Below are positions 6,900 through 46,362 of a stretch of DNA of 55,969 bases, piece by piece. This DNA is from Proteromonas lacertae. Lineage: Eukaryota. How positions within the stretch are numbered: the stretch's first letter is position 1; each line of letters begins with the position of its first letter. Location: positions 62,001 through 117,969 of the forward strand of contig NGBS01000607.1 in NCBI GenBank assembly GCA_002245135.1, in the 5' to 3' direction. The position numbers and the translations under genes are program-made. The notes under the pieces were generated by a model. The model was not told the origin of the DNA. It saw only the letters and a list, made by a program, of their open reading frames with translations, and made no database searches.

Positions 6900-7051
6900 A
6901 TAATCTTATACATATACATCATTTTATATTTAAATGTTTTGTTTTACATTTTTGATATTTTGACATGTCAATAAACACAGTAATTACATTTTCTGTGATT
7001 TATCTTTATTTTGGGTTATAAACCGTAATATATATTATATTTTATAAAATA

Positions 7052-7421
7052 ATATAATATAAATGTACTAAATCCTCTTTTATAAGGGTTAAGAGGAGGA
7101 TTAACCTCATTTAAATCCTCCATGAAAGAGGAAAGAGGATTTATAGATCCTCTTTGAAAGAGGATATATGATTTTTAGATCCTCTCTGAAAGAGGAATAA
7201 TAAAAATTTAAAAATCCTCATTATAAAAATATGAAAGAAAGAAAAAATGTTAAACCATATAGATAATGTTATTAAAAAATTAGAAATCCTCCATGATAGA
7301 ATTTTATGATGGACTATGATTTTTATCTGACCAGCCCCCCACTGTGTGGGGGGCCGAGGGGGGTTCCAGGCGGCAGGGGTTGAGGGAGGACTAGACTATA
7401 GTATAGACTAGAATAGATTAA
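7052..7421 (+). repeat. Left terminal inverted repeat (370 bp)
   Basis: Reverse complement of 28986-29356; the only differences seen are in the G-tract (GGGGGGTTCC vs GGGGGGGTCCC). Confidence 0.97.
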
Positions 7422-7548: not shown

Positions 7549-8921
7549 TTAATGAGCTCTTTCCAGTGTTTTGATCCTTTCATCAAGTTTCTTGATTCCT
7601 TCTTTCACATTATCTACATCCTTTTGAATTTCATCAATCTCTTCTTCATAATCCTCTTTTGCTTTCTTTATATCATTGAACTGTTTTTTGTAAGAAGCTT
7701 TATCAGGGTATTTTGATATATCCTTGGATTGATACTGTTCCTTATACTTCCTCATCTCTTCTAAAAGGTCATCCATTCTATCACTTTTCTTGTAGGCTTT
7801 ATTCATCTGATTTTTCTTATATTTCATCATTTCAGTCTTGAGGAATTTACAGGTGTTGATAGAAAGGATGTCAATGTATTTCACAAAGGATCCATTGTTG
7901 TACCACTGTTGAATTGAGGATTTTTTGTTGAGTATTATATCAAAGAGGTCTGAATCCTCATACTTCTTTGACAGATTTGGAGGAGGAATTTCAGCTACCT
8001 TTCTTTGTTTTCTCTTTGTTGTATCCTTCTTTTCTTTATCATTTCTTTCTCTCTTTTTAGGTAATAATGGTTTATCATCTTCACTATCAGTATCACTTTC
8101 ACTATCGACTATTTGAGGAATATCCTCTTTTTCAATTTCTTTTGTAACTTCACTGACTTTCTTCAATTTGGAAGGATTCTTAGGAGGATTTGTTTCAGAA
8201 GAGGATTTTGATATCTTCTTTACATCAAACTTGTGGAGGATTGAAGTCTTTTGTAATACCTCTTTAAATGAATCTGACTTGGGTTTGGGAGGAGGTACAG
8301 GAGGAGGATTTTCAAAATCATCATCATTAATCTCTCTACTATCCATTTTTTCTCGGTATTGTTTTCTACGATTGAAAGCATCTCTTGCAGCCATATGTTT
8401 TTCTCTATCTTTGTTATATTTATCTTTTTCAATTTCCTCTTTTTGACTTTCCTCTTTTTGACTTTCCTCTTTTTGACTTTCCTCTTTTTGACTTTCCTCT
8501 TTTTCAATTTCCTCTTTTATACCATAAATAGGATGTTTCTTTTTGATTTGGAGGATATCAATTTCATTTTCCTCTTTATCCTCCATTTCCTCCATTTCCT
8601 CTTTTTCCTCCATTTCCTCTTTATCCTCCATTTCCTTCATTTCCTCCTTTGCATTTTCTTTCCAAGTCTATTATAGATATATTATATAAAAAATATACTT
8701 CAGAATGATTTGCATCTAAATGATGAATGAAAACACATAACTGAGAATATAATCCTCGAACCGCAGCATCATCCTCATTGCTCCATTTTTCCCTGGGATA
8801 AAATGGTTGACTACCTAAGAACTTTGTGAAAGTCCTACAATATATTAATGAGGAAATCTTACTTAGTAGCATCTGCTGTAGCAATTGTTAATTTCAATAT
8901 TTCTGTAGTGTTGATTTCCAT
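7549..8921 (-). CDS. Viral orphan, ~437 aa, acidic/coiled-coil; two introns (8835-8862, 8668-8698)
   Basis: ATG 8921 MEINTTE..ATK; removing 28-nt GTAAG..GTAG and 31-nt GTATA..ATAG keeps frame into the 7549-8640 ORF; (KEESQ)4 and EEMEDK repeats. Confidence 0.75.
8434..8505. repeat. 15-bp coding tandem repeat (KEESQ)n
   Basis: TTTCCTCTTTTTGAC repeated about 4.5 times. Confidence 0.9.
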
Positions 8922-9137
8922 ATATTTAAAAATTCTAACCATAAAAATGGCAGGAAAACTCAGAATGAAAAGTAACGACAAATTTACTTAAAAAGTAACG
9001 GTAGATTATGATTGGAGGAAATTCCTTCGTTACAAAACCGTTACTTTTTTACGAAAAATGAGGATTTTTGAAACCCAAAAAAGGAACTTAGAAAAAAATT
9101 CATTAATTAGGATTTTGAAATTACTCTATAACATTTT

Positions 9138-9467
9138 CTAAATGGTATCAGAATATTTTGATGGAGGATAATGTAATCTTCCACTACTTGTTCTATATGT
9201 TCTGTTTATTGATGCTAATTCCTCATTTTCCTCAATAATATCCTCTTCCTCATTATCTTCCTTTTTATTTGTACTTCCTAAATTATGCTGAATTTCCTCA
9301 ACCACTTCAATTACTTTTGGAGGACAGTATGCTTTATATGTATAATATACAATTTTGATAACTTCTGTTACAACCCAGAGTATCACATATACTAAGAGGA
9401 TTCCTATACTTTGTTTGATTTCCTCAACATTTGTCTCTAAGACAGTCTCATTATTTTTTGATAACAT
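9138..9467 (-). CDS. Viral small single-pass membrane protein
   Basis: Hydrophobic SIGILLVYVILWVVTEVIKIVYY, acidic tail, upstream element motif. Confidence 0.65.
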   Translation of the reverse strand: MLSKNNETVLETNVEEIKQSIGILLVYVILWVVTEVIKIVYYTYKAYCPPKVIEVVEEIQHNLGSTNKKEDNEEEDIIEENEELASINRTYRTSSGRLHYPPSKYSDTI

Positions 9468-9541
9468 TTTGTTATTATGATAGTGCTATATACAAAAACA
9501 ACAAGAAAATTAAAAATGAAAATAAAGATTAATAATTAAGT

Positions 9542-9880
9542 TTAAGCATGATGAAAAAATGTATGTGTATCTAAATACTGATGTTGTCTTCTAGTTAAAA
9601 AGGTACTTCGTATTCTTCTAGGTTGAACTGCTCCAGTATAAACAAGCAAGGGCATTTTAATTATCCAAACACGTGAAGCAGTACCTGTAATGTGCAATTC
9701 TGGTATCCTTCTTATATTTTGATAAGGTCCTGAAATTATTAATATTGCATTGTTTCTTTGTAATCTTTCAGCAGCTGCACGAGTAACATTATATGCCCAA
9801 TGATCATTATTATCAGAGTAAAGAGTAAACAAAACAGGTCCATTATCATCAAAACGCAAACGATAAGTAAGTAAAGGCAT
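9542..9880 (-). CDS. Viral orphan protein (112 aa)
   Basis: ATG-initiated ORF preceded by the recurrent TTTCTTGTTGTTTTT motif. Confidence 0.6.
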   Translation of the reverse strand: MPLLTYRLRFDDNGPVLFTLYSDNNDHWAYNVTRAAAERLQRNNAILIISGPYQNIRRIPELHITGTASRVWIIKMPLLVYTGAVQPRRIRSTFLTRRQHQYLDTHTFFHHA

Positions 9881-9928
9881 TATTTCAAAAACAACAAGAA
9901 ATAAGAAAATAATGGTTTATATTAAAAC

Positions 9929-10669
9929 TTATATTTCCATTTCCTCACTTTCCTCTTCATCATCATCATTATCATCAAGATCCTCATCCATTGTAGAAGG
10001 AATGACAACATCTATCTTTCTTTTCTTTGGAGCTGGTTTTGGACATAATTCAACTTTTACTTTTCCTCCATTTAAAACTTCCTCTTTAACATTTCCTTGT
10101 TTCTTTTGTTGTCTTTGTTTATCATAATACTCCTTTTTCTTTAAACGACATTTTTCACAACTTTTGTTTTTGTCACCATTTGGCTTTGTTGCAAAGTTTT
10201 CTAAAGGAAGGATTTTGTTGCATGTAGAACATTTTTGTGATCCTTCTGGTACTGGAGCTGATTCCTTCTTCTTTTTAGGAACATGAATGACTTTTTCATC
10301 TTCTTGCTCTTCATCCTCATCTTCTGCAAAAGGTTCACCTGGATTAACTCCTATTTTAAAATCTGATAAGATTTTGATTGGTTTAAGAGTAGTGAGTAAA
10401 TCAATAAGATCCTCCTGTTTTGCATTTGCTATTCTGTATAAGCTTAATCCATCGATAAGATTTCTTAAAAGGATCTCTGTCATACTTCTTGTATGATTCA
10501 CCATTATATCCCAAAAATTCTTGTTGTTGAGAATAAAGAAATCGAAATTCTCTTTTGTTAGTACTTCTGGTTCATTCAAAGGAGGAATGTTAATTGGAGG
10601 AGGAACAGCAACCTTAGGTGAACTAGGAAATGAACTTATGTTCATATCATCTTGTAAATCGGAATTCAT
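9929..10669 (-). CDS. Viral C4 zinc-finger protein with basic and acidic tails
   Basis: CSTCNKILPLENF..SCEKCR (CxxC..CxxC), KKRK NLS-like motif. Confidence 0.7.
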   Translation of the reverse strand: MNSDLQDDMNISSFPSSPKVAVPPPINIPPLNEPEVLTKENFDFFILNNKNFWDIMVNHTRSMTEILLRNLIDGLSLYRIANAKQEDLIDLLTTLKPIKILSDFKIGVNPGEPFAEDEDEEQEDEKVIHVPKKKKESAPVPEGSQKCSTCNKILPLENFATKPNGDKNKSCEKCRLKKKEYYDKQRQQKKQGNVKEEVLNGGKVKVELCPKPAPKKRKIDVVIPSTMDEDLDDNDDDEEESEEMEI

Positions 10670-10766
10670 TTTTTGATTTTTTTAAATTTATGATAAGTTT
10701 TCAAAAGTTTTAGAAAATACTTAATTAAAATAAAACTTAGAAATTAGTAAAATTCTAATTAGCCAA

Positions 10767-11162
10767 TCAAATCGTTTTCCGTTTCTTTACATTTTTCCTT
10801 TCTTCTTCTTTTTCTTTATCATAATCTAATATCAAGCAGATAATCGATATGTTCCTTATATTCCAAATCCTTTCCGCTATTTCTGCATGTTTCCTTTGAT
10901 AGGAGGATCGACTATCTTCAATACTCATTTGGAATCTCTCTAAAGATTGAGGAATATTTCCTTCCTTCTTCCTATTTTTCTTCTTTTTAATATATTGTAA
11001 GTAATCCTTGTATTCCTCTAAGCATAACTTATAATCCTCATAATATTCATCTAACTTACTATATTCAAGAGATATAGAAATTTCCTCCATATCCCACCAT
11101 TTCCTCTTATTTACATTTTCAAACAACCCAAAATCAATAAAATCAAGATTATCCTGTTTCAT
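10767..11162 (-). CDS. Viral orphan, helical/charged
   Basis: ORF from the first ATG (MKQDNLDF..) with a C-terminal KKRK. Confidence 0.6.
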   Translation of the reverse strand: MKQDNLDFIDFGLFENVNKRKWWDMEEISISLEYSKLDEYYEDYKLCLEEYKDYLQYIKKKKNRKKEGNIPQSLERFQMSIEDSRSSYQRKHAEIAERIWNIRNISIICLILDYDKEKEEERKNVKKRKTI

Positions 11163-11234
11163 AAGAAAAGTAGAAAGAAAAAGAAAAATGAAATCAACCC
11201 AAGAAAATAAGCACAAATAAGATCAAAATCCTTT

Positions 11235-11510
11235 TTAGAATAAATGCCTCATTATTATTTGATCTGGTGAAACTGGTCCTTCTACTTTAGGTTCAATCAT
11301 TGTAGCTACTGATAATACTATTTCCATTGATTGGTATAGAAAATTGAAATTAATATTTTTGTTACCGTAATAAATGCGAATCTTCCAATTCTTTAATCTT
11401 TCCTCCATGTTGTCTTCTATAACAAGAGTATATACTTCTTTCTCTAATTCCTTCAAAGTAGCCATTCTCAATTGAGTACTAGGATAATCGAGATGAAGAT
11501 CTGAATACAT
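11235..11510 (-). CDS. Viral orphan (91 aa)
   Basis: ATG ORF preceded by TTTTCTTGTTGGTTTTT. Confidence 0.55.
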   Translation of the reverse strand: MYSDLHLDYPSTQLRMATLKELEKEVYTLVIEDNMEERLKNWKIRIYYGNKNINFNFLYQSMEIVLSVATMIEPKVEGPVSPDQIIMRHLF

Positions 11511-11635
11511 TTTTTACTTAAAAACCAACAAGAAAATTGAAAATAAAATATCAGTTATACAATACTTAAATTTTAATTGCTGACATTTGATTGGATAATT
11601 ACGGAAAATCTGGATTTTGTATTTTGGTGTACTAA

Positions 11636-13012
11636 TTAAAAGTATTTACTAGCATATTCTACTTCGAAGTCATACTGTTTAGCCATTTTATCTAATTGAT
11701 CATAAGTGTATTTTGATCTTTCCTCTTCTGTCATATGAATTGGATGTTTAGTAACTCTAAATAGCGGTGCTACTCTTGGATTGTTTTGAACTATATTTTC
11801 TATATAGTGAGGATCACTTATATCAAGTACATTTCTAGTAGGAGCATTAACAACACTCCATTTTGGTTGAAAAGGTTGTGGACCTTCGAACATAGTTCCA
11901 ACAGTCTTAGTTTCAGGTGGAGGAGGAGGAAATGGTTTATAAACATCCGTTTGTGCATCTCTATATTGAGGAGGAGGATTCGTATTAGTTTCCTCTGTTC
12001 TATATTCTGGTCCTCTTGTAATTGGTTTAAAATCAACATTCTCTTGAGGACTTACACTAAATGTTCTTTGTGGAGGAGGTAAATCAACTGGAGGATTTAC
12101 CCAATGTTTCAATAACTGAGGTTCATCTGTTTGAGTATATCCAGATGTTTTTGATGGGAAATAATTCTTTGGTTCTATAAACATTTCTGATAATTTTCTT
12201 TCATTTACAAAAGAGGATATAGGAGTTTCTGATGTTCTTCCTAATGTTGGAATTGGAGTAGTAAATGTAGGTGTTTGTTGTACTGTAAGAGGTCTTTCTG
12301 GAGGAACAATATTGATTGAAGGATAAGGATTTTCAACTACTAGTTTATTGATCTTGATATTTTTTGAATTATCCTCATTTCTTTCATTTAAACCTATAAA
12401 CAAAATATAATATAAAAATTAAAAATTACTTTTTAAAAAACTACTTATATCCTTGTCTCCAACTCCATCTTTTAAAGGATCATAATTTAATCCTCCTGTA
12501 GGAATAGATTTGGGATCATACATTCTTGGTAATAAAGAATCTCTTATACTCCCTGTTCTTCCATAAGGAACACTTCTTGATAGAGGATCTGATGCACCAA
12601 ACATAAATCCTCCTTTCATCATCTTCAATTGATTTTCTAATCTTTGTTTTCCTAAATTTAATTTTATCATTTCTTGCTCTCTTTTGAAGATTTCATCTTT
12701 ATTATCCTCATTAACTGGTAGAGATTCCATTCCTTCATAGTCTGTTATTTTTTTATTAATATCTATTAAGTTGTTTTTCAGTTCATTTATTTTCTGTAAT
12801 TGGCTATCGAATTGCATTCCTTGTAAATGATCCAATCTAGATTGGTTAACATTGTATACTAATTCAGGAGCATCCATATCATATGCTAATCTCTTGAAGC
12901 TTTTATTTATTTTTCTTTTATACTTTCTTTTATGAGATCTCTTTCCTATTCTAGAAGATACTCTTTTTGCCAACTCAGTGATCAACTTATTAATAATATT
13001 TGATTTTTTCAT
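11636..13012 (-). CDS. Viral basic/Pro-rich putative core protein, ~446 aa, one 36-nt intron (12394-12429)
   Basis: ORFs 12419-13069 and 11636-12403 are in the same frame; the separating TAA lies inside GTAAT..TATAG; MKGG|F adenain-type site. Confidence 0.7.
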
Positions 13013-13052
13013 ATTACCCAAGAAAAACAAAAATGAATTAAAAATATAAATT

Positions 13053-13556
13053 TTAATAAAAAGGGGCAAAAGCTTCTTTACTAGGATCTATAATAATTCC
13101 GTTTATTTTTTCTACTTTAGCTTCTCCAATTGGAGCATTCTTTGGAGGATCCTTTAATTTGCTTTTATCAGAGGATTTCTTTTCTGTAATTTCCTCTTCA
13201 TCTGATCCTTCACTCTCCATTGACTTTTTTGATTCATCATCCTCATCCTCACTTGAACTTACTTCTACAACTTTCTTTTTAGGTGCAGTCTTTTTTGTCT
13301 TTTCCTTTTTTGCTTTTCGAGCTTTTTCTAAACTTTTAATCCTGTTCTTATATTGTTCTGATGTAAGCTTTCTCCTTGAAGCAGTAGATGCTGTTTGAAA
13401 TGCACTATTCAATCCTTGTAATTGACTAAGTATTTGTAAGTCTATTTGAGCACTTTTAGATAAATAGTCATCATCATCATAATAATCATCATAATACCCA
13501 TCGTCGTAATTCTGATAATATGATTGATTTCTATTGTTATTGTAATATGGATTCAT
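13053..13556 (-). CDS. Viral low-complexity protein (Y/D-rich, K-rich and acidic blocks)
   Basis: ORF MNPYYNNN.. Confidence 0.65.
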   Translation of the reverse strand: MNPYYNNNRNQSYYQNYDDGYYDDYYDDDDYLSKSAQIDLQILSQLQGLNSAFQTASTASRRKLTSEQYKNRIKSLEKARKAKKEKTKKTAPKKKVVEVSSSEDEDDESKKSMESEGSDEEEITEKKSSDKSKLKDPPKNAPIGEAKVEKINGIIIDPSKEAFAPFY

Positions 13557-13596
13557 TTTTATATAGAAAAACAAAAATAAAAATAATAATAAAAAT

Positions 13597-13998
13597 TTAA
13601 GAAGCGATTTTACTTAAAAGGAAATTATTTAATTTCATTGGTATACTAGTATGTGATCCTCCTTTTATACATACTGTACGATGTCTATGTCTTCTTACTC
13701 TACTGCCTCTTCTTCTACGTCTTCTACCTCCATTTACACCAAATCGAATTCCACCTCTTACTTTTCCTAATCCTAATACTTTCATTATATCCAAAGCTTT
13801 ACTTGCTACCTCAGTTACTTTACCTCTTCCTTTTTTTAATCCTCGAAACATTGTATTTGGTACTTCATGTCTTATAAGTTTACCCATCAAGCCAAACTTG
13901 AATCTTCCATTTGATCGTCCTCTTCGTCCTCTTCTTCTTCTTCTTGAAACGGATCTTCCTCTTCTATAACGACGTTTACGCCCACCTAAAATACTCAT
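13597..13998 (-). CDS. Arg-rich protamine-like viral core protein (adenovirus pVII/pX-like)
   Basis: Poly-R tracts separated by ILGG, VRGG, VNGG and IKGG motifs; divergent from the protease gene. Confidence 0.75.
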   Translation of the reverse strand: MSILGGRKRRYRRGRSVSRRRRRGRRGRSNGRFKFGLMGKLIRHEVPNTMFRGLKKGRGKVTEVASKALDIMKVLGLGKVRGGIRFGVNGGRRRRRRGSRVRRHRHRTVCIKGGSHTSIPMKLNNFLLSKIAS

Positions 13999-14073
13999 AT
14001 ATGATTGGTTATTTTCAAATATGAATAGAAAATTAAAAATGAATTCATTTCTCGTTTTCTTGCAATTTTTAGG

Positions 14074-14643
14074 ATGAAACTACGTTTATGCTTTACAAAT
14101 AATAGAGTATATGGTCATGGTGAAAAGTCTAAGAAACCATATGATATGGCTTTATCTAATTATGATATCCCCAAAGTAATAAAATCAAATTTTCCTGAAA
14201 TGTTAAGCAGATTTGGAGGAGTGTTTTTATGGGATGAAATTAAAAGTATTCCTAAACTGAATTTGAATAAGTGGGGTGTGATAATATGTACTTTAAAAAG
14301 AAAGGATCCTCCTGAAAAGATAGGTCATTGGGTAAGTTTAGTAATTGATAATGATAAGCATCAATTCCTTTATTATGATAGTTTTGGAGAAAAACCTGAA
14401 CATACAAAATCCTTTGTTAAGTATATAAAGCATCTTAAAGCAGATCCTCATCAGGATTATAAGTTAAAGATAAATGGAGTTGTAAATCAAAGGATAACAA
14501 CATCTACTTGTGGATATCATGCTATTTTATTTTTAAGAGATATTTTACTGCATAACTTATCATTTATTGATGCAACAAATTTCAATACAGTAAAAGGAGA
14601 GGAAAGAGCAAGATTATTAGCCAACAAGTTTAGAAAAATATAA
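14074..14643 (+). CDS. Adenain/Ulp1-like cysteine maturation protease
   Basis: GHWVSL (His), YYDSFG (Asp), NQRITTSTCGYHA (Gln, Cys). Confidence 0.93.
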   Translation: MKLRLCFTNNRVYGHGEKSKKPYDMALSNYDIPKVIKSNFPEMLSRFGGVFLWDEIKSIPKLNLNKWGVIICTLKRKDPPEKIGHWVSLVIDNDKHQFLYYDSFGEKPEHTKSFVKYIKHLKADPHQDYKLKINGVVNQRITTSTCGYHAILFLRDILLHNLSFIDATNFNTVKGEERARLLANKFRKI

Positions 14644-14652
14644 TAATAATAA

Positions 14653-17600
14653 TTAATGTTTTATTTTAACTCTTTTTATTGGTTCTTCATTTACATCTTC
14701 CTCATCAAAAACAGCTTCACTTCTTTTTCTTTTTTGTCTATTATCCTCTTCTGCAAATACATCTTGAGGTTGTATATTTTGATCATCTAAATCATCATCC
14801 TCATCTTCTTCATCCATCTGATCATTATTATCATCTTGAATGATATCTCCTTCATCATTATAATATATTCTTCTTTTTTTCTTTTCCTCTTCATCTTCAT
14901 CATTACTATCTACTCTTCCTCTTTTAAGTTTAACAGGATGAAAATCTTCATCTTCATTCTCTTCTTGTACTGGTGGTGGAGGAGGTGGTGGAGGAGGAGC
15001 TTGTTCTTCAGGAGGAGGATTATTACTATTACTATTATCTATAGCACTTTTGAAATCTTCATCTGTTTTTTGAGCTACTGTTTTCATCATTTCACTCTTA
15101 TCTAATTCTTTAGTATAATGAGCTTCTTGAGGCTGCCAATTTTTACTTACATCATTAGAAACATCTTGATCTACTTTAGCTATTTCCTCTGCATCTAAAT
15201 TTAATACTTCCTTTTTATCTATTGTCATTCTATTCTCTTCTGGGTTGATTTGATAGTCTCCAAAAACATTTTGTAAATAATCATTATTAACATTAACTGT
15301 TTCTCTATTCAGCTCATTGGGTTGTCTTGCACCTCCATAATATCCTCTTGCTATTCTCTCTAAAGGTTGTTGAATTCCTATATAATGTCTCCATACACCT
15401 TTTTCTGCATCAGACATATTTCTATACTTAGTTAAGAACACATCATAATACATATTTTGCAATTGATGTTCCGTATATCCTTTTGGTAACCACCCTGGAG
15501 GTGGTAAATACATTCTATTTACACCTAAATTTCTTCTCCAAATATATGGCCATTCAGTAGGTTGCATATTTGGTGGAACATTTACATCAATAATTGTCCA
15601 TTGAGGATTATTTGCAGGATCTATACCTGGTAACATTTCAAATATAGGATGATCTTCTGGAATATATGGTAATCTCATATACCTAAATAATGCAGTAACA
15701 GGAGCATTAGGATATCTATCACAAGTCCAATCTTCTATTCTTAATATATCTGGAACATATCTATAATATCTACCATCACCATCTTGTAAGTGAGGACAAT
15801 ACCATTGTCCACTTCCCCAACTACCTTGTCTATTTGCAGGTAAATTTTGCCAAGTATATCTAGCAGCACGATGTCTCATAACTTTTAACATTTCAGCACT
15901 AATTGGATTACCGTATTCTTTAAAATCTAAAGGGTTTTCTATAGGTCCAAAGTCACCTTTAATATTTCCATTTTCATCTAAATTTTTAAAAATAGGATCA
16001 CCATATGCTCTTGAGTGTCCTGGAACAGCTGCATCAGCACCAGGTTGTTTCCATACTTCATTATTTCTTGCATTTCCTTGAATATTATTATTTTGATTAA
16101 AGAAGACTTTATTTTCCCAATAAGGTGCTGTAATATTTTGTATATCAGTATGATTAGGATTATTTAATTCTGGAGGTCTCATATAAGGCATTACTTTATT
16201 TTGATTTTCTACATTTCCTCTAATTGCTCTATAATTTTCATCTGTATCTCTTCTCCATGGGTTTGCATGTAATTTACCAGGCATATTAATAAACTGTCTA
16301 CCTCCTAATTGAGCATCAACATATCTAGGAATTGTAGGATACCAATACCATGCTCCTCTATAAGTAGGAGATGCATTTTGAGCATTTCCAAAGTAAGGCC
16401 AATCTAAAGGATTTCCAATATATAGTCTTGGTTTAGGATAATTTTGAGGATTATCATTAACTGCTTTATCAGTTACTCTCATTGATCCATACAATCTGTG
16501 TGGATATCTTCTATATACTCTATCATCAAACAGATAATCTAAACTGAAATTAGGTATAGGTATAGGATTATTTACTCTATATCCTGGTTGTTGATGTACA
16601 TTTATATCTAAATTACTTATCATCTTTGTAATATATACTATCATTCCTACTTCTGTTTTTAAGATTGCATGCATAGCTAAAGTTGTCAATTCATTTTGAT
16701 CTTGAGCAAATATAAGTTTACATAAAAGAAATTTCCTTGCAAAGGATAAAAGTTTGTATTTAAGATAATGTATTTTTTCCTTTGTAGTAGCTGGAACATA
16801 ACGAGCATCTCTATTATTATTATTAGGAAGATGTTGTTGAGCATTATTCATATTTGTCCACCAATGTGGAGTCCACCAATTTTGTCCAAAATGATTTGCT
16901 TGGTCATCAAATTGAGCTTGTCTATTTCTATTTATATCCTGATCATTTACATTTCTTTGATTCCATTTTGCTCCTAATGCTCTTCCATATTCTGCAGTTC
17001 CTGGTATATTAAAATTATGATTTAATGTTTTCTCAATATCTATTCTTAATTGAGCAGGATCTCTTCTTTGTCGTTTTTGATTTAATTCTCTATTAGGAAA
17101 CAAACTTTCATAATATTCTCTTAAAGTTACTAAATGTCTAACCACCATATACATCATATTATGAATAGCATAACATGCTACATTCTTTTTTTCATTCAAA
17201 TAAGCATCTCGTTTCCATAATTTAATTGTAGGAACAAATACTTTATTAATAAATCTGTAAAATCTATCATATACTAATCCAAAATCTAATTTTCTGAAAA
17301 ATTCACTTCCGTAAGTACCAATCCTCAAATCCTCTACATAAGCATTATCACCATCTACTGGTTGTGCACCATCGAATCTGTAATGATCTAATTTTTGGTA
17401 TATATAAAAAAGCCAATAATTGCAGTCCGCCTGTCTCATAATTATTTTTTCTACTGCTTTTCTGTAATTATGCCAATCTTGTTTCGTTTGAAAAGTAGTT
17501 GGTACATAATTTATATGTGTGAATTGATTATCAATAGGATAAACTCCTGCATCTGAATTAGCCATGGTACTCTGTCTTAAAACAGTCAAAAAATCATTAC

Positions 17601-17916
17601 GAAATAATGAAGAATGTCCATTTGTAATACGAGGATCGAAAGGCTTTTTATTAGCATTTAAGAATATAGTTCTTTTATCAGTTGGTGCTTCATATAACCT
17701 TCCTCTATCACTTAAACCAGGTCCCATTGGCACTCTCTGCTGAACAGCTAAATACCTATTAGTAGTAGGTATATTACGTCCTCTTTGTGCTTTATAAGCA
17801 CTATTGATATTTGGAGGATTTTGATTTACAGGAGGATAATTATTAGGATCAGGAGGATCTATTGCATTATTTTGTATCATATATGGAAATCCTAGAACAT
17901 TACGACGAACAGCCAT
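14653..17916 (-). CDS. Large viral orphan (1087 aa; N/Q/P/W/Y-rich, acidic C-terminus)
   Basis: Uninterrupted 3.2-kb ORF with no recognisable motif. Confidence 0.85.
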   Translation of the reverse strand: MAVRRNVLGFPYMIQNNAIDPPDPNNYPPVNQNPPNINSAYKAQRGRNIPTTNRYLAVQQRVPMGPGLSDRGRLYEAPTDKRTIFLNANKKPFDPRITNGHSSLFRNDFLTVLRQSTMANSDAGVYPIDNQFTHINYVPTTFQTKQDWHNYRKAVEKIIMRQADCNYWLFYIYQKLDHYRFDGAQPVDGDNAYVEDLRIGTYGSEFFRKLDFGLVYDRFYRFINKVFVPTIKLWKRDAYLNEKKNVACYAIHNMMYMVVRHLVTLREYYESLFPNRELNQKRQRRDPAQLRIDIEKTLNHNFNIPGTAEYGRALGAKWNQRNVNDQDINRNRQAQFDDQANHFGQNWWTPHWWTNMNNAQQHLPNNNNRDARYVPATTKEKIHYLKYKLLSFARKFLLCKLIFAQDQNELTTLAMHAILKTEVGMIVYITKMISNLDINVHQQPGYRVNNPIPIPNFSLDYLFDDRVYRRYPHRLYGSMRVTDKAVNDNPQNYPKPRLYIGNPLDWPYFGNAQNASPTYRGAWYWYPTIPRYVDAQLGGRQFINMPGKLHANPWRRDTDENYRAIRGNVENQNKVMPYMRPPELNNPNHTDIQNITAPYWENKVFFNQNNNIQGNARNNEVWKQPGADAAVPGHSRAYGDPIFKNLDENGNIKGDFGPIENPLDFKEYGNPISAEMLKVMRHRAARYTWQNLPANRQGSWGSGQWYCPHLQDGDGRYYRYVPDILRIEDWTCDRYPNAPVTALFRYMRLPYIPEDHPIFEMLPGIDPANNPQWTIIDVNVPPNMQPTEWPYIWRRNLGVNRMYLPPPGWLPKGYTEHQLQNMYYDVFLTKYRNMSDAEKGVWRHYIGIQQPLERIARGYYGGARQPNELNRETVNVNNDYLQNVFGDYQINPEENRMTIDKKEVLNLDAEEIAKVDQDVSNDVSKNWQPQEAHYTKELDKSEMMKTVAQKTDEDFKSAIDNSNSNNPPPEEQAPPPPPPPPPVQEENEDEDFHPVKLKRGRVDSNDEDEEEKKKRRIYYNDEGDIIQDDNNDQMDEEDEDDDLDDQNIQPQDVFAEEDNRQKRKRSEAVFDEEDVNEEPIKRVKIKH

Positions 17917-17976
17917 TATGTTTCAAAAATAGTAAGAAATTGTTAAATAAATTCATTTTAAGATTTCTTTAAAATT

Positions 17977-18929
17977 ATGCAAAAGAAGAAAGATTTTAAT
18001 AATATTGAACGTAAGCTTATAGTAAATACAAAAGATTATGATCCCAAACTTCCTCATGATGAATACCATAGAACCATACGTGTTCCCAGCGTTGATGAAA
18101 GATACCATAATATTACATTATTGTCTGCATCGATTAGTAACACATTTCCAACAATCCAAAGAGACATTAATAACTACTTTAAAATCCATATGCATGGAGA
18201 AGAATACGATATAGAACCTACTACAGGAGAAATAAGACATTTACAAGCTATATCATATGATAAAAATATTTACATTCCTTTAGGATACTATACAGAAGAT
18301 GAAATCCTCTCTATTATAAATGAAGGATTTTTGAGAAGATTTTCTTATATTGAAGATGATATAATGGTACCAAACGAACAAATTGATCCTGCACAAGTTA
18401 TAAGTATTAATAGAAAGAATAAGTTACAGTTAGACTATAAGATAAAGTATGTATTTAAAGTAGGACCAGTACCTCAACCTCAAAATTTTTATGGGTAGAC
18501 AATATTTGGATGGAACTCCCTAATAATATATTCAAATTATTCGGTGAAGATCATAGAGATGAAAAAATAGTTTTGTGGAAAAAGAAATATGATGAAAGTG
18601 AAATAACTTTTGAAAAAGTAATTAAAGGGATTATTTCAGTTCCTCAAAGTTATGAATTTCCGTGTAGACCATCTTTAATATCAGTGAGTCAATTGCAGTT
18701 AAGATTTGATACTGTTAATCAGGATGAAGATTCTAATGTTTTGGCAAATATACCTATTGAAAGATTTGAGGAACCATTTATAGTTTATAATAATCCTAAT
18801 CCTAAATTAACTGCCAGAAGGATAGGTTATCATCAAAATGATTTAATAACAGTATCCCTTTCTCAGGAGGATGGATATGGAATTAGTTTGGATGAAGTAA
18901 CTTTATGTTTAGAAATCCTTATTTTTTAA
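17977..18929 (+). CDS. Minor capsid (penton, single jelly-roll) protein, split by a -1 frameshift near 18483-18490
   Basis: SASISNTFPTI..IPLGYYTEDEIL..LFG..VLANIPI..ITVSLSQEDG..LCLEI pattern; directly upstream of MCP; two ORFs in adjacent frames. Confidence 0.75.
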
Positions 18930-18973
18930 TTCTTTTATTATTCTAAAAATTCTTGTTGTTTTTAAATAACATA

Positions 18974-20329
18974 ATGTCATTATCAATTCCTACATCACAA
19001 AAATATTCAAGTGATATTCAAGTTTTTAAACCAGAGCAGCACTGGATACGTATTACTCCTAATCAAACAAGAGATGTTATTACTTTGCAGGAAAGTAATT
19101 CCTCCAACACTGTTACTTTTGAGTTATCTCCTGATAATTGTATTAATTTATCCCAATCTTATATGGAATGGGAACAAAAATTCTATTGGGATAAAGTAGA
19201 GGATCTTCAGAGTATAGAAAATCCTACTGTAATCCTCTTTAATACCTTCAATTTATCCACAATTAGAGTGTATAACATTACTGGTTCTTTAATATGTGAT
19301 TTGGATTTTCAGTATAATGATTACAGAGATATTGCAGCACAATTAGCTAAGAAAGTAATTATTGATGATAATTATTTTGATCAAAATAGTAAATTATTTA
19401 CTGGTATACATAAAGAATGGAATAACCAAGCAGGAAGATGGGAGATAAAAAATAGAACAGTAACTGGATTTAGTAGTGGTAATGTACCAACAAAAGATAT
19501 TCCTATGGAAGGTAATGCAAATATATGCAAAGTAAGAATGATATTAGGAGAATTATACAATACTATATTAAGTTTATCCAATGATATGTTCTTTGGAGAG
19601 AAGATTTTCATTCAATTTACTTTTGGACCTAGAGAGAAAACATGTATGGCAGAAAAAGCTGCAGGAAATCATGATATGATACAACCGAAAGTAGATTTAT
19701 TTAATTTAGAATTATATGCTTGTTACAATACTGATCCTGATTGTAATGCCAATACTTTAAATTGGGTATATCGTCATCCTATTGATTTTAATGATTTCAA
19801 TATTGTCCAAACAACAGTTACTAATTCAACAGCTACTAATCATTTTCAGTACAATTTTACAATTGATTCTAGTATTGGTCCTTATGTAAAGTATATATTA
19901 TATACTGCAGTAGATAATGATGGACAAATAGTATCTTTTGATCATCCTGATACTAGATTTAGATGGTTATTAAATGATTTTGTTTACACTCCAGATTTCT
20001 TATACGTAAACAATCAGGATTCTTATTACCAAATGCAAAAAATGCTTACAACAACCTATTTTGACCAATATAATACTAAACCATTCCCCAAAAAATTCAT
20101 TGAAATTTTGAAGTTTACTGCTGATAATAATTTGACTAACATTAAGTCCAGAGGAGGAAGACCATTAGACCAACAACTTAAAATAACCTTTGATTGTTAC
20201 AATATAAATTTTGGTCCAAAAAGAAAAAATGATTTACAACACGATATTACTTCAGTAACTCATCGATTCTATATCATCACAGGAAGAATTTTAGAAGTAG
20301 GAATGAGAGGAATCCAAAGGGTAATATAA
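18974..20329 (+). CDS. Major capsid protein (double jelly-roll)
   Basis: 451 aa, beta-rich; VTFEL..INLSQSYMEW resembles the Polinton MCP N-terminal motif; lies between mCP and ATPase. Confidence 0.8.
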   Translation: MSLSIPTSQKYSSDIQVFKPEQHWIRITPNQTRDVITLQESNSSNTVTFELSPDNCINLSQSYMEWEQKFYWDKVEDLQSIENPTVILFNTFNLSTIRVYNITGSLICDLDFQYNDYRDIAAQLAKKVIIDDNYFDQNSKLFTGIHKEWNNQAGRWEIKNRTVTGFSSGNVPTKDIPMEGNANICKVRMILGELYNTILSLSNDMFFGEKIFIQFTFGPREKTCMAEKAAGNHDMIQPKVDLFNLELYACYNTDPDCNANTLNWVYRHPIDFNDFNIVQTTVTNSTATNHFQYNFTIDSSIGPYVKYILYTAVDNDGQIVSFDHPDTRFRWLLNDFVYTPDFLYVNNQDSYYQMQKMLTTTYFDQYNTKPFPKKFIEILKFTADNNLTNIKSRGGRPLDQQLKITFDCYNINFGPKRKNDLQHDITSVTHRFYIITGRILEVGMRGIQRVI

Positions 20330-20376
20330 AAATTTTAAATTTTAAGTCATTCTTATATTTCTTACTGTTTTTTAAT

Positions 20377-20928
20377 ATGGGGTTATACTCGTTTAAATTA
20401 AAAGGCTCTCGGGGTACATCAAGTAAAAGAAGAAGAAGAAGAGGACGAAGAAGAAGATATAGAGGAGGAAATTGGTTAAAAGGAAAAGGTATTTTAAGTG
20501 GATTAGCAAAATTAATACCTTTTGCAGGTAATGCTATTTCTCATGTAATTGAGAAACAAGGATATGGTAGAAGAAGAAGAAGAAGACGATGCAGAGTAAG
20601 AGGAGGATCTTTTAAAGATGTTTTTGCAAAAATTCCCCAAAATAGAAGAAATCCTCCTTTAGCAAGATTAATAAGTCCACTTAAAGGAAATGATCCTAAA
20701 ACATGGGGTCCTCCAAGAACAGGAAAAGGTTTTGGTGATACAATTAAAAAGATAGGAAAGTATATGCATGATCATAAAGTATTAAGTAATGGAATTAAAA
20801 TAGCTAATTCAGTTTTAAATCCTTGGAGTACAGTTGCTAATATAGCATCTAAAGGATTGAGTAAAGTTGGTTTAGGTAGAAGAAGAAGAGGATGTATAAG
20901 GAGAAGAAGAACTAGACGTAGAAGATAA
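20377..20928 (+). CDS. Arg-rich core protein with amphipathic helices (pX/pVI-like)
   Basis: Three poly-R blocks, YRGG/LKGKG/VRGG sites, helix GILSGLAKLIPFAGNAISHVI. Confidence 0.75.
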   Translation: MGLYSFKLKGSRGTSSKRRRRRGRRRRYRGGNWLKGKGILSGLAKLIPFAGNAISHVIEKQGYGRRRRRRRCRVRGGSFKDVFAKIPQNRRNPPLARLISPLKGNDPKTWGPPRTGKGFGDTIKKIGKYMHDHKVLSNGIKIANSVLNPWSTVANIASKGLSKVGLGRRRRGCIRRRRTRRRR

Positions 20929-20971
20929 TTTCATTAAAATATTTCATTTTCTTTTTTCTTTTGTTTTGTGT

Positions 20972-21721
20972 ATGTATCGTATTAAAAAAATAAATAACAT
21001 ATCTGTAGAACCTTTGGAAAAGCCAAAGAAAAGAAAGAAGCCTTCGAAGAGTGTTTTAGGATATGAGTATTTTGAGGAACCTTTTAGTAATATTTTCATT
21101 GTAGCAAAAAAGAAATCTGGTAAGACAACTTTAATTTATAACATTTTGAAAAACATCTTATCCTCAGAGGAAGAACAAAAAGTATTCTTTTTTGTAAGTA
21201 CTTTAGATAATGATATTATATATGAAAAGATATTTCAATTATTAAAGTATAATGGTATTTACTATGAAAAATATGATTCCTTAATAAATGAAGAAGAAGG
21301 ATACAACAATTTACAAAAAGTAATGAAGGATTTGGATCCTGTAGATAAGAGTAATATGACGTATCCTGAAAATATATTCATCTTTGATGATATTTCCTCT
21401 GAATTGAAGATGCCTATTATTAATACAATTACTAAACATAATAGGCATTATAAATCCAAAACAATATTTAGTTCTCAGTATATAACAGATTTGTCTCCTC
21501 AAGCCAGATTGCAAATTGATTACTGTTTAGTTTTTAAAGGTTTAACTGAAGACAATTTAAGAAGATTGTATGAATCCTTGGAATTATGGCCAGATTCTTT
21601 TGAGGATTTTAAGAAAGTGTATAATGCAGTCGTTAATTCCTCTCCCTATGCTTTCCTCTATATAGATAGAGCTAAATCAGAGTTTAGGATAAATTTCGAT
21701 AAAGTATTGGAAGAAAAATAA
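20972..21721 (+). CDS. A32/FtsK-like DNA packaging ATPase
   Basis: Walker A IVAKKKSGKTT, Walker B IFIFDD, RHYKSKTIFSSQ motif. Confidence 0.93.
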   Translation: MYRIKKINNISVEPLEKPKKRKKPSKSVLGYEYFEEPFSNIFIVAKKKSGKTTLIYNILKNILSSEEEQKVFFFVSTLDNDIIYEKIFQLLKYNGIYYEKYDSLINEEEGYNNLQKVMKDLDPVDKSNMTYPENIFIFDDISSELKMPIINTITKHNRHYKSKTIFSSQYITDLSPQARLQIDYCLVFKGLTEDNLRRLYESLELWPDSFEDFKKVYNAVVNSSPYAFLYIDRAKSEFRINFDKVLEEK

Positions 21722-21750
21722 CTTTTAATTCATTTGCTATTTTCTTTGTA

Positions 21751-22452
21751 ATGTTGGGTAATAACATAAATAACACTCAAAAAATAATTGAAACAATTAG
21801 AGAGGAAGTGCAGGATGCTGCAGAAGATATCCTTATTAATATGCCGGATATTCAAACATTGGCTAGCAAGGATGATATTAAGGATGTTGTTAAAAAGATA
21901 GATCTCAACGCTGCTGTTAATGGTATATTAGAAATTTACGAGAATGTACTATTTACTAAATTAAAAGTAGGATTTCCATGGAAACTAGGTACTCAATTTA
22001 TTACTATGAATATATTAGCAACTTTTGATAATGATGTTTATGCATGTGGAAGAATGTTTCCTATACAAGTAGATTTTTATAATAATTTCATAATGCTAAA
22101 AATTTTAGCAGATCAACCATTATCATTTCAACAACCAGAATTTAATCAAATTGATTTTTATATGGATATAGGTGCATCAATGTCATGGCAAATTCCAAAT
22201 GATTTTTATAAAAGTAAATTTGATTCTTATTTTCAGTATATCAAACAAGATTTAGTATTTACGTTAACAGTTGTAGAAAAAGATACTAAAAATGTTACAG
22301 GGATTTACTTTTCTGAAAAGCCAGGACCTAAAGGAGTTGTTGATCATAAAGATTTTTGTTTTAAAGGTATGCCATACTGTAAACCCTTTTATATCCCAAA
22401 ACAATCTCAAATTATGAGAATAGGAAATACCTATTTGGGTGATAATTTTTAA
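21751..22452 (+). CDS. Viral orphan (233 aa): N-terminal coil + beta-rich C-terminus (possible fibre/spike)
   Basis: ATG ORF following the ATPase; function inferred from composition only. Confidence 0.65.
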   Translation: MLGNNINNTQKIIETIREEVQDAAEDILINMPDIQTLASKDDIKDVVKKIDLNAAVNGILEIYENVLFTKLKVGFPWKLGTQFITMNILATFDNDVYACGRMFPIQVDFYNNFIMLKILADQPLSFQQPEFNQIDFYMDIGASMSWQIPNDFYKSKFDSYFQYIKQDLVFTLTVVEKDTKNVTGIYFSEKPGPKGVVDHKDFCFKGMPYCKPFYIPKQSQIMRIGNTYLGDNF

Positions 22453-22518
22453 GTAATATTTCCTTATTATGATTTTTATTTATGGGGAAAAATAAAAACA
22501 TAAAAATAAAATTCGAAA

Positions 22519-23799
22519 TTACCATAAATGTCCTGCTCCATATATACTACGTGAGTATAGAGGATTAGGTCTACTTATCCTTCCTGATCTTGTCCTTCTA
22601 ACTTTATTAACAAAATCAAGTGCTGCATTATTATCCTTATAATCCTGTACTGCTTGTTCTACAGGATTTACTGGAACTGTTTCAGTAACAGGTTGTAACT
22701 GAGGATCATCATTAACAACTACTCCTGGAGGAACATAATCTGGATCTCTCCTATACTGTTGTAACTGTTTTCCTATTGATCTGTAATACTGTTCATTCTG
22801 TTTAGCAAAGGATGGATGCGAATCTGAAACATTTAATAATTCGTACTCTTTAAATCTTTTAGTAACTGTTCTTCCTTCATCATCAAATACATCAATCTCA
22901 TATGAAAAAGGATTTTTCCTCTTTATAGTATAAACCTGATCACTATACCTATGAGACTTATCTAATTTTGATCTAGGTCTTTCCCTAACTCTCACTTTAT
23001 CTCCTACATTAAAAGTAGATCCTCTCTTTGCTCTGAGATTCCTATTATAATTCCTCGATTCATGGAGGAATTTCAATTGTAGACTCATATCATCATACAC
23101 TTCATTTGGAGTATATCCTTTAATTCCTGAATGAGGAGTGTTGTTATAATCCTTTACAATCCTCTGGATAAAATTATTTAAATCAGCTTGAGTTTTTATT
23201 TCATTTTTCATATCTTGAGTACTTCCTCTATAGTAAATAAGATCCTTTATTGTCCTAACTGCTCTGTCCAAAATTCCCATAATATTATGTTCATCTGTAT
23301 CCTTAAAATGAATCTTTATTTTATACCTTTTACAAAAACTTTGAAATTCATTACTTATAAATACACCTTCTCTATCACATATAATAGAAGCAATGAATAT
23401 CATATATTCCTCTTCTCCTTCAAAAATTCCTTTTATCCTATTCTGAAATACAAACCTTGTAAAAGCGTCTGCAAAAGCTAAACCACTTCTACTTGCTAAA
23501 GTATATACCCAAACTTTCCTCGATACAACATTAATAATGAATAAGGATGGAGGACCATCATTTCCTTGAAAAAAAGCAAAATCAATCATGAAAGTTCCTG
23601 GTACTTTAATAATAGTATACCTTAATTTTTTAGGACGAACTCTTTTAGATGCTAATTGATATCGTGGAGAAGAATATGCAAAAGTCTTAGCTTCATTTTC
23701 ACTATAACCATAGTGAGTACAAATATCGATGAAATCCTTTGCAGATAGATAGTTATATTGAGAATAAAGATCTTGTAAAGTCTTTTTTGGAATATCCAT
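22519..23799 (-). CDS. Retroviral-like (rve) integrase
   Basis: MIDFAF..ICDREGVF..GILDRAVRTIK..YNNTPHSGI..TPNEV..FNVGDKVRV; no chromodomain seen. Confidence 0.93.
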   Translation of the reverse strand: MDIPKKTLQDLYSQYNYLSAKDFIDICTHYGYSENEAKTFAYSSPRYQLASKRVRPKKLRYTIIKVPGTFMIDFAFFQGNDGPPSLFIINVVSRKVWVYTLASRSGLAFADAFTRFVFQNRIKGIFEGEEEYMIFIASIICDREGVFISNEFQSFCKRYKIKIHFKDTDEHNIMGILDRAVRTIKDLIYYRGSTQDMKNEIKTQADLNNFIQRIVKDYNNTPHSGIKGYTPNEVYDDMSLQLKFLHESRNYNRNLRAKRGSTFNVGDKVRVRERPRSKLDKSHRYSDQVYTIKRKNPFSYEIDVFDDEGRTVTKRFKEYELLNVSDSHPSFAKQNEQYYRSIGKQLQQYRRDPDYVPPGVVVNDDPQLQPVTETVPVNPVEQAVQDYKDNNAALDFVNKVRRTRSGRISRPNPLYSRSIYGAGHLW

Positions 23800-23851
23800 A
23801 GAAAAACAAAAATAAGAATATAGTAAGGAATTAATGATAATTATCAATTAA

Positions 23852-24775
23852 TTACTTTTTGTGTTTGTGATTCTTCTTTAAAGATAAAGCTCCAATATTA
23901 CTTCTCTTAATTACTGGAGGACTTAAGGATCTGTCTCTCTTTCTTTTAGGAGTACTAAACTTCTTTTCCTCTTTTTCCTCTACCTTATCCTTAACTTTTT
24001 CTTTAACATAATCATCACTTACAATCATAACATCTCCATCAATAAATAAATTAATGAAGCATATATTGTTCTTAATAGTATACTTTAAAGCAACTACAGG
24101 AACAACAACATCCTTATCTTCCATATCAGTCCAATCCTCATATACTGTTTTATCATTTCCTACAAGATTATGTCTATCATCATTCTTCCAAATAAGGATC
24201 CTGTATAAATTGAGGACAACTTCAATACTATGTTCCAAATGTTTAGAAGTTTTTAAATAATCAGCTATATCATACAACCAAGAGGATTTCAACTTTATCC
24301 ATTCACTTGCATCACAGTCCTTTCCTGCAAATCTAGCTACTTGAACATTGGTAAACTTCACAGAATAATATCCTTCTTGATCCTCTTTTGGTTTCTCTAA
24401 CTTCATCTCAGATACATGTCCTATAAAAGTTAACCATCTATTTAAGTGAGGAGGAAGATAATCACTTACTAATCCTCTTGCAGATTCTAACTTAGGAATA
24501 TTTCCCATTTCCAACATTTGTTTATCACCCATGATTTTCCTCACTAATTCAGCTTCATACTTAGGTTCAGGATTACTTTCCATTTCATCTATGTTGTTTT
24601 CCTTACACCATCTTTCATAATCTTTAATATAAGGTTTTTGATATTCACTTTGTGATACTGGTTCAGTTTCAACATTTTCATAATCCTCTTCATCACTAGT
24701 TATAGTAGTGTTATCCTCCTCAGCCTCCTCTTCTACATACTTTTTTGAAGTAAAGTACTTTTTACCAGAACTCAT
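23852..24775 (-). CDS. Viral protein divergent from pPolB (possible ssDNA-binding protein)
   Basis: 307-aa ORF with acidic N-terminus, beta-rich core and basic tail; function is speculative. Confidence 0.6.
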   Translation of the reverse strand: MSSGKKYFTSKKYVEEEAEEDNTTITSDEEDYENVETEPVSQSEYQKPYIKDYERWCKENNIDEMESNPEPKYEAELVRKIMGDKQMLEMGNIPKLESARGLVSDYLPPHLNRWLTFIGHVSEMKLEKPKEDQEGYYSVKFTNVQVARFAGKDCDASEWIKLKSSWLYDIADYLKTSKHLEHSIEVVLNLYRILIWKNDDRHNLVGNDKTVYEDWTDMEDKDVVVPVVALKYTIKNNICFINLFIDGDVMIVSDDYVKEKVKDKVEEKEEKKFSTPKRKRDRSLSPPVIKRSNIGALSLKKNHKHKK

Positions 24776-24976
24776 GATTTTTTAAAAGTGTTTAAAATAG
24801 TTAAAAATAGCAAGAAAATTGCAAATGAAAAAAGTAACGATTTTTAAGTAGATCTTTCATTATCCAATTAAAATTTAGTATACGTTCTTATTTGACCAAT
24901 CATATCATTTGACCAATTATATTAAAGTATAGTCATTTTTTGTTTTCTTTTTAGTTTTGAATTTCTTAAGTATAAA

Positions 24977-27900: not shown

Positions 27901-28941
27901 AAATATATTTCCTCTGAAAAATTAGTAACTGATCTACTTCCTAAGGAACATTATGTCATCCATTATCAGAATCTTAAGTTTGCAGTGGATCATGGATATA
28001 AAGTTACTAAAGTATATAAAGTACTAACATTCTTGGAAAGTAAACATATGTCTAAACATATAGATCAATTAAAGGATATGAGAGTTCATGCAAAGGAAAT
28101 GCATCAAACATCGACTGCTAATATTATGAAGAAATTACTTAATTCACTTTATGGAAAAACATTAGAAAGGGTTGATAAGAGGAGAAGTATCAAATTAGTA
28201 GTTTCAGAAAATCAAGCAAGAAAAGCTATTAGAGATCCTTGGTTTGATAAGATAGATACTATACATGGAGATTTAAGATTAGTACATTATCATAAAAAGA
28301 TGTTTAAGATTAACAAACCTATTCAGATTGGTATGACAATCCTTGCTCTTTCTAAATTATTAATGCAACAATATTGGTATGATGGAGTATTACATTACAA
28401 TTCACCAGAGGATGTTAGACTCTTAATGACAGATACTGACAGTCTCCTCTTTTCTGTAAGGACAAAGGATATTTATTGGACTTTCAATCATCTTCAGAAA
28501 TATATAGATGGAAGTAATCTGAATATGCCTCCTTTTAATAATTACTACAAATGGGATTCTCTTTCATGTAAACCAGGAACATTAAATAAACTCAAGTTTG
28601 AGGAACAGGATGGTAAGAAATTCTATGTCATCACTAAGTTTAGAGGATTGAAATCCAAGTGTTACTATTATGAAAAGGAATGTGTTAATGATGGAACAAT
28701 CAAATCCTCCAACAGATGTAAAGGATTAATAACTGCTATAGCAAGTAAGATGACAGGAGATGATTATACTGAAATGGTTGATGGATATGTTTCTAAACAG
28801 AAGTTTGGTATAAATCATATTAGAAGTAGAAATCATCATATCTATACTGCTTATGAAGAGAAGATAGGACTTACATACTTTGATGATAAAAGATATTTTG
28901 AGGATGATTATGAAACAGTTCCTTATGGATACAATAATTAG
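24977..28941 (+). CDS. Protein-primed family B DNA polymerase (TP-vOTU-exo-pol), 1-nt frameshift at 26940-26943
   Basis: YYDTEA, HNAMRYD, YLCIDV exonuclease motifs; DMNSLYP, KKLLNSLYGK, TDTDS polymerase motifs; CFWRAI..GHYCAI; adding one A gives DSYQFLSEKLSSL. Confidence 0.95.
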
Positions 28942-29356: not shown

Positions 29357-29361
29357 AAAAT

Positions 29362-45518: not shown

Positions 45519-45672
45519 ATGTAGCTTATATGACAAAGTAAGATTATATTTGCATAACACTCAACGGCGCATTTAGCTCAAAGGCTCAACACATACGTAT
45601 TTATCTGTTTAAATTTGTATATTTCACATCTTCTATTAATATAGTTATTACTGAAGGTGAAACAATAGGAAC

Positions 45673-46288: not shown

Positions 46289-46362
46289 GGAACGATTCTA
46301 TTCAAATATTAAGTAATAACCATTGAATTACTATTTGATAGAGAAATAATATTTAGTGTAGC

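Follow-up and report, generated by a model that had tools for sequence, protein, structure and literature searches.

An Integrated Polinton-Type Element and Its Core Genes

The window, i.e., the whole stretch of 55,969 nt of the Proteromonas lacertae contig NGBS01000607.1 that was analyzed, has a GC content of 27.4%, and its host part is AT-rich, uses the standard code and carries tiny introns. A CFAP58-like gene and cyclic-nucleotide-binding domains are encoded in this host part; they suggest that the host is a flagellated relative of Blastocystis, and a flagellar gene speaks against Blastocystis itself. TIRs, a TSD, GC content, and core genes delimit a complete integrated element of the Polinton type (MELD/PLV-like) at 7052–29356 (22,305 bp). 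In an inverted-repeat comparison, the left TIR (7052–7367, 316 nt) was 100% complementary to the right TIR (29041–29356, 316 nt), with the similarity extending beyond these 316 nt at 93% to about position 7421, while the 6-bp TSD at 7046–7051 (plus strand) recurs as an identical hexamer at 29357–29362. The identical ends suggest that the element is young. Its GC content is 29.5% vs. 25.6–26.8% in the flanks. Because its termini read ATATAAT and carry none of the AG/AGT repeat end motifs of vertebrate Mavericks, the element is, on sequence grounds, not placed in the vertebrate Maverick subgroup.

A protein-primed PolB in two overlapping frames (24977–28941, plus strand) matched PF03175 with an E value of 2.5e-18. 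The intronless cysteine protease of the Ulp1/adenoviral type (14074–14643, plus strand) matched PF02902 (E 6e-7), with additional weaker matches to C57 and C5, and the intronless rve-type integrase (22519–23799, minus strand) matched PF00665 (E 1.8e-6) at 28.5 bits, which is under the curated cut-off of 32.6. The intronless major capsid protein (18974–20329, plus strand), a predicted double jelly roll, was assigned from a structure model of modest pLDDT (54.9) and from fold matches. The best PDB matches were the Sputnik, iridovirus, PBCV-1, and mavirus capsids with E values of 2e-8 to 4e-7 at a TM of only about 0.2, and the second match in the fold search was a “MELD virus sp.” protein (E 1.9e-10, 9% identity). 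Five relatives of the capsid protein were found, at identities of 79, 79, 37, 32, and 31%, all of them devoid of DNA context. An intronless putative P-loop ATPase (20972–21721, plus strand) yielded weak P-loop matches only and no Pox_A32 match, and is likely the packaging ATPase, a role taken from its gene context. The two ORFs preceding the capsid gene likely constitute one minor capsid gene (17977–18929), a candidate assigned by position alone. No recognizable RNA polymerase gene is encoded in the element. As judged from these sequence features, the element is a Polinton-type integrating virus. When exact matches were sought for 10 window proteins, none of the 10 was found.

Two Arg/Gly-rich basic ORFs of the element, at 13597–13998 (minus strand) and 20377–20928 (plus strand), look related and are candidate DNA-condensing core proteins. 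Another ORF, at 14653–17916 (minus strand), encodes an Asn/Pro-rich orphan of 1087 aa that had neither Pfam nor PHROG matches.

The First Gene Inside the Left TIR Is Split by Two Candidate Introns

Counted from the left end (left TIR), the gene analyzed here comes first in the element; it lies on the minus strand. Its exon 1 (8863–8921) comprises 59 nt when counted from ATG 8921 and 80 nt when counted from ATG 8942, exon 2 (8699–8834) comprises 136 nt with 45 full codons, and exon 3 (7549–8667) comprises 1119 nt, i.e., 372 codons plus the stop. Between them lie a 28-nt candidate intron 1 at 8835–8862 (GTAAG…TGTAG, phase 2, 75% AT) and a 31-nt candidate intron 2 at 8668–8698 (GTATA…ATAG, phase 0, 90% AT). 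When both segments were cut out, the exons of 59, 136, and 1119 nt yielded a 437-aa protein with a single terminal stop, exactly as claimed in the initial annotation, in which these two segments joined three frames from ATG 8921. A start at the in-frame ATG 8942 gave 444 aa after both removals.

The unspliced product from ATG 8921 is 20 aa long and those from the first ATGs are 20–27 aa, while removal of intron 1 with retention of intron 2 gives about 90 aa. Both segments are 3n+1 nt in length. In detail, the frame of exon 1 reaches a stop two codons into intron 1, intron 2 contains two stops in the frame of exon 3, and the frame of exon 2 is open through intron 1 and includes ATG 8872. Stable structures were sought within the introns, and none forms. 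A TGTTTGTT element 41 nt past the stop was rejected as evidence, having 5 copies in the window vs. about 4.8 expected.

Similarity of the Two Segments to Host Introns

To score the segments, a host-intron model was used that derives from 20 candidates obtained by a frame-joining scan and by-eye picking; as the scan was filtered for GTA…YAG, part of any match to this set is built in, and one of the 20 was verified by homology. The candidates were 25–44 nt long (median 33), 86% AT, and began with GTAT in all 20 cases, and their leave-one-out scores (n = 20) ranged from −1.1 to 13.1. The verified intron, of 29 nt, interrupts a CTP synthase gene, with exon 1 encoding residues 1–43 and exon 2 continuing from residue 44 of the solved homologs. 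Among solved CTP synthase 1 chains, the two groups that this CTP synthase matched best gave nearly the same score (345–348 bits); we take them to be the human and yeast ones. According to the available text of the respective sources, intron lengths in Blastocystis peak at 30 nt (PMC5608401), and AT-rich members of the Blastocystis group have 21–27% GC (PMC12129017).

All 1770 GT–AG segments of 24–40 nt in the element were ranked by this model. Intron 2, which has the GTAT donor, ranked 1 of 1770 with 9.6 bits, within the host range. Intron 1 ranked 164 of 1770; its GTAAG donor brought its score down to −5.1 bits, less than that of any of the 20 host candidates, and it fits the host introns in length and 3′ end only. 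Thus, the initial annotation's description of both segments as matching the host introns in style applied well to the 31-nt segment, but for the 28-nt one it extended no further than length and 3′ end.

The expectation by chance was assayed with 3000 one-base breaks simulated in 12 element ORFs. A frame-restoring GT–AG segment of 24–40 nt was present at 1326 of the 3000 breaks, which makes restoration of a frame weak evidence by itself. An AT-rich GTA…YAG rescue was available at 65 breaks, a rescue as host-like as intron 1 at 130, and one as host-like as intron 2 at none of the 3000. These results placed intron 2 far beyond chance and intron 1 moderately beyond it. On these sequence criteria, intron 2 (8668–8698) is very probably spliced, and intron 1 (8835–8862) is probably spliced as well.

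Coding Signal of the Exons

The exons were then scored by a codon model trained on 17 other ORFs of the element. In their spliced frames, the 19 codons of exon 1 scored +10.1 bits and the 45 codons of exon 2 scored +19.4 bits, vs. −9 to −23 bits in the other frames. In calibration windows, which were drawn from the training ORFs themselves, the mean scores for lengths of exon 1 and exon 2 were +7.8 and +18.7 bits for coding windows and −7.9 and −20.1 bits for stop-free off-frame windows, respectively. The frame of exon 1 was favored right up to the donor, and over the 27 nt past the second acceptor the frame of exon 3 scored +5.3 vs. −2.5 for that of exon 2. Read in the frame of exon 2, intron 1 scored −3.9 bits; intron 2 is open and neutral in this frame (+1.2 bits), which is mildly against the intron reading. 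All three exons have the viral codon bias in their spliced frames.

A Promoter-Like Motif Precedes Exon 1

A promoter-like motif (core TCATT, tail TTTCT) is common to the upstream regions of 18 other element ORFs. When it was learned from these 18 starts, the leave-one-out total was 235 vs. 101–113 in five shuffles, and sites were kept at 16 of the 18; the sites lie upstream of most element ORFs, over a span of 8953–24950. For the held-out split gene, the best site within 8600–9140 was located directly before exon 1 (8953–8968, minus strand; 11.1 bits). Measured from the motif's A, this site is 24 nt from ATG 8942 and 45 nt from ATG 8921, upstream of both, and among 44,556 sites only 3 unrelated ones scored as high.

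The oomycete core promoter is composed of INR (YCAYTYY) and FPR (MWTTTNC), as given in the available part of PMC3599244. The motif of the split gene has one mismatch to INR+FPR, tied best among 23 element starts, and a match this close was reached at 13 positions among the 44,580 in the element. Before the internal ATGs, the mismatches number 4 for ATG 8872 and 3 for ATG 8640. The motif was not found at two host starts (3 mismatches). Since these two host starts lack it, the link of the motif to host polymerase II rests on the oomycete likeness, by which the motif may be a host polymerase II promoter. A TCATTCT core is also present 68 nt upstream of the exon 3 ATG 8640, so an unspliced 363-aa product from this ATG is possible.

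A Third Candidate Intron in a Second Gene

One more candidate intron, overlooked in the initial annotation, is located at 12394–12429 (minus strand, 36 nt, 92% AT) and contains an in-frame stop. It is in frame, ranked 2 of 1770, and joins 12430–13012 to 11636–12393 into a 446-aa product. As it is 3n nt long, it is not a frameshift artifact. The 69 codons between this segment and the next ATG were coding-like (+32.4 bits), and at the next ATG beyond it a good motif is absent. The lengths of 28, 31, and 36 nt with GT…AG ends are all within the host range of 25–44 nt, while the GTAT donor is found in intron 2 and is replaced by GTAAG in intron 1 and by GTAAT in the third candidate. No mutual sequence likeness beyond AT richness is evident among the three segments, and they are not copies of each other. 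A fourth candidate at 13088–13115 was rejected, being A-rich and ranked 134 of 1770, with a downstream ORF that has its own motif.

Other Frame Breaks in the Window

Three other frame breaks were present in the window, all of them −1 shifts at A/T runs. PolB is broken near 26945 (26941–26956, plus strand) by a −1 shift at an A run, and an intron-like segment is absent there. The host CFAP58-like gene has a −1 shift at an A run near 35325 (35300–35345, plus strand), which suggests indel errors in the assembly. In the minor-capsid candidate, two ORFs overlap in −1 phase near 18490 (18459–18498, plus strand), where the heptamer A AAT TTT occurs in frame, two codons ahead of the stop, and this break is either an assembly error or a programmed frameshift. 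The best host-intron scores near the breaks of PolB, the minor-capsid candidate, and the CFAP58-like gene were −2.6, −4.0, and −13.4, respectively, and no stable structure was found downstream of the PolB and minor-capsid breaks. The three −1 breaks appear to match the pattern of long-read assembly errors, and indel errors or decay are real in this window, including in one host gene. However, the two junctions of the split gene, 136 nt apart, are in the opposite phase to these three breaks.

Origin of the Gene and Features of Its Product

On synonymous codon use assayed by leave-one-out, 14 of 17 element ORFs were positive and all 15 host ORFs negative. Exon 3 scored +45 bits, strongly element-like, while exons 1 and 2 are too short for this assay. 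The GC content of exon 3 is 32% vs. 26–27% in the flanks.

Homology searches and folding used single exons as queries instead of the spliced protein. For exon 3 no homologs were found (lengths 204–651 searched), and for exon 2 there were none among 1.84 billion representatives. The exons of the gene had no usable ESM Atlas match and no PHROG match, and in Pfam they yielded coiled-coil matches only, all sub-threshold. Likewise, no sister locus was confirmed among viral contigs (with MCP, MCP alignment, ATPase, and PolB queries), metagenome contigs (with exon 3 C-terminus and MCP alignment queries), or prokaryote genomes. Because the gene combines element-like codon use with the element's own motif and is without known relatives, its recent capture from the host appears unlikely; more likely, the introns were gained by the viral lineage or the capture was an old one.

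Exon 3 encodes Glu/Lys-rich repeats, an acidic tract, with 39% Glu in the first 80 residues, and basic patches. Its last 130 residues were modeled from the single sequence as a pair of long helices (pLDDT 73), so that the C-terminus is predicted to be a long helical hairpin or coiled coil. Its final residues, RIKTLE, fit a trimeric coiled-coil motif from the literature. Tentatively, the product may act in the nucleus as a non-structural scaffold or regulator; a role in the virion or as a fibre-like protein is also possible.

Probable Splicing by the Host and Alternative Explanations

In the reading that we favor and regard as fairly probable, both segments are real introns, and their origin is not a recent one. 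Host RNA polymerase II would transcribe the provirus in the nucleus, the transcript starting at the element's common promoter-like motif just upstream of exon 1, and the host major spliceosome, adapted to introns around 30 nt in length, would excise both segments. The resulting protein of 437–444 aa would consist of a small N-terminal domain, the acidic repeat tract, the basic patches, and the long C-terminal coiled coil. Expression would depend on host splicing, because the unspliced transcript gives 20–27 aa and retention of intron 2 about 90 aa. The initial annotation had offered adoption of host splicing or capture of a host gene as explanations. Use of the host spliceosome is the best reading in view of the intron 2 score, the exon codon bias, the motif, and the third candidate, while capture, if recent, conflicts with the element-like codons.

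Only intron 2 may be real, the first junction then being a one-base insertion (assembly error or mutation) or the start lying at ATG 8872 (430 aa); the donor of intron 1 is indeed unlike those of 20/20 host candidates and the segment ranks 164 of 1770, an equally good rescue exists at 130 of 3000 random breaks, and the frame of exon 2 is open through intron 1, with an ATG. We nevertheless consider this unlikely, as intron 1 scores −3.9 bits in the frame of exon 2, exon 1 looks coding in its spliced frame, whose two ATGs are the first past the motif, and the other three breaks of the window go in the opposite direction (−1). The same opposite phase weighs against splicing of neither segment, for which two breaks are needed within 200 nt, whether as one-base insertions in a long ORF (error or decay) or between separate unspliced ORFs of 83 aa from 8872 and 363 aa from 8640, with the GT–AG ends arising by chance in AT-rich DNA. 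Although frame-restoring GT–AG segments occur at 1326 of 3000 random breaks, one-base breaks affect PolB, the likely minor-capsid gene, and the host CFAP58-like gene, and a TCATTCT core precedes ATG 8640, one of the two breaks would have to coincide precisely with the top-ranked host-like segment among the 1770 (0/3000 by chance), and the in-frame third candidate at 12394–12429 would be left unexplained; this explanation is thus improbable.

Alternatively, the introns could be real and have arrived with a recently captured host cargo gene, as in nematode Mavericks, whose intron-bearing cargo region resembles the position of the gene as the first inside the left TIR, and intron 2 is indistinguishable from host introns. 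Such an arrival is highly improbable in view of the element-like synonymous codons, the exon 3 GC content of 32% vs. 26–27% in the flanks, the element's own upstream motif, the lack of a Pfam match above the cut-off, and the third candidate, located in a second gene 4 kb deeper in the element. Starting from the favored reading of two real, non-recent introns, a broader scenario can be drawn, though it is a doubtful one: a Polinton-type lineage of gut protists would have gained host-tailored introns of about 30 nt (at least three, in two virus-born genes) and an initiator-type promoter on nearly all genes, its expression being nuclear, polymerase II-dependent, and without a giant helper virus, with retention of intron 1, through its non-host GTAAG donor, as an on/off gate for one regulator.

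Comparison With Known Elements

Polinton genes had been referred to as usually described as intronless in the initial annotation, and this agrees with the available text of two sources: endogenous viruses of protists are stated to contain no introns, and prokaryotic gene finders were used therefore (PMC10120064), and no introns were seen in intact vertebrate Mavericks (PMC8097293). As a general rule, however, it has exceptions in print, namely, nematode Mavericks and dinoflagellate introners. The present element shares with vertebrate Polintons/Mavericks, as presented in the accessible part of PMC8097293, the TIRs, 6-bp TSD, pPolB, rve integrase, protease, putative ATPase, and double-jelly-roll capsid, and its core genes are intronless too. 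It differs from them in carrying three intron candidates in two non-core genes, where that text describes no introns, and in termini that begin with ATAT instead of AG/AGT end repeats.

Closest in layout are the nematode Mavericks with the cargo wasp and krma, which, in the portion available of bioRxiv 10.1101/2022.07.12.499685, likewise have an intron-bearing gene by the left TIR and intronless core genes. That cargo belongs to recognizable host families and lies in a high-GC, poorly conserved region, according to the same portion. The present gene, in contrast, is an orphan whose codon bias and upstream motif are those of the element and whose candidate introns are about 30 nt long. The Blastocystis/rumen MELD viruses (PMC8502044, available text) are alike in Adinto-like PolB plus integrase, highly divergent virion proteins, and a gut protist as host; viral introns go unmentioned in that text, and the likeness to the present element is by genes and fold match, not by phylogeny.

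Spliceosomal introns in integrated Polinton-like elements of protists are also found in the introner-invaded eupolintoviral elements of dinoflagellates, in the accessible text of PMC12166617, but those introners are multi-copy transposons, whereas the present three segments have no evident sequence in common apart from being AT-rich. The intron-rich mirusviruses are likewise DNA viruses of protists whose genes contain spliceosomal introns, which the available part of PMC12768974 takes as a mark of nuclear transcription. They differ, by the same text, in belonging to a different realm, with genomes of hundreds of kb, introns that peak near 80 nt, and enrichment of introns in morphogenesis genes. 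Group I introns are known in cryptophyte PLVs, as far as the available source text goes. Within the scope of the literature searched, no description was found of spliceosomal introns this short (about 30 nt) in genes that belong to a protist Polinton itself.

Introns of about 30 nt mimic frameshifts and premature stops, by which genes are truncated and intact elements called decayed. If the favored reading is true, the spliceosomal introns and the initiator-like promoter would place expression in the host nucleus, under host polymerase II. The weight of these results is limited in that intron-bearing Maverick cargo and introner-invaded elements are already in print, introns are absent from the core genes of this element, and the splicing itself is a prediction.

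Other Repeats and Gene Clusters in the Window

Outside the Polinton-type element, a 3.9-kb element at 41634–45518 has 973-nt arms that are 100% complementary and a 1.9-kb core with short ORFs, and is possibly a foldback element with captured DNA; its ORF at 43952–44224 ends, by eye, in a kinase-like motif. It is followed by a MITE-like element of 618 bp at 45672–46289, with 252-nt arms at 99%. Two further inverted-repeat pairs were observed, one at 40494–41119 (42 nt at 98%) and one at 48424–50375 (44 nt at 77%), the latter enclosing a GC-richer 1.9 kb of up to 42% GC whose ORFs fall in no known family. A cluster of long, single-ORF, glycosyltransferase-like genes occupies very AT-rich DNA at 47519–55745, with DUF3431, galactosyltransferase, GT10 fucosyltransferase, DUF1647, and NodZ-like families represented.
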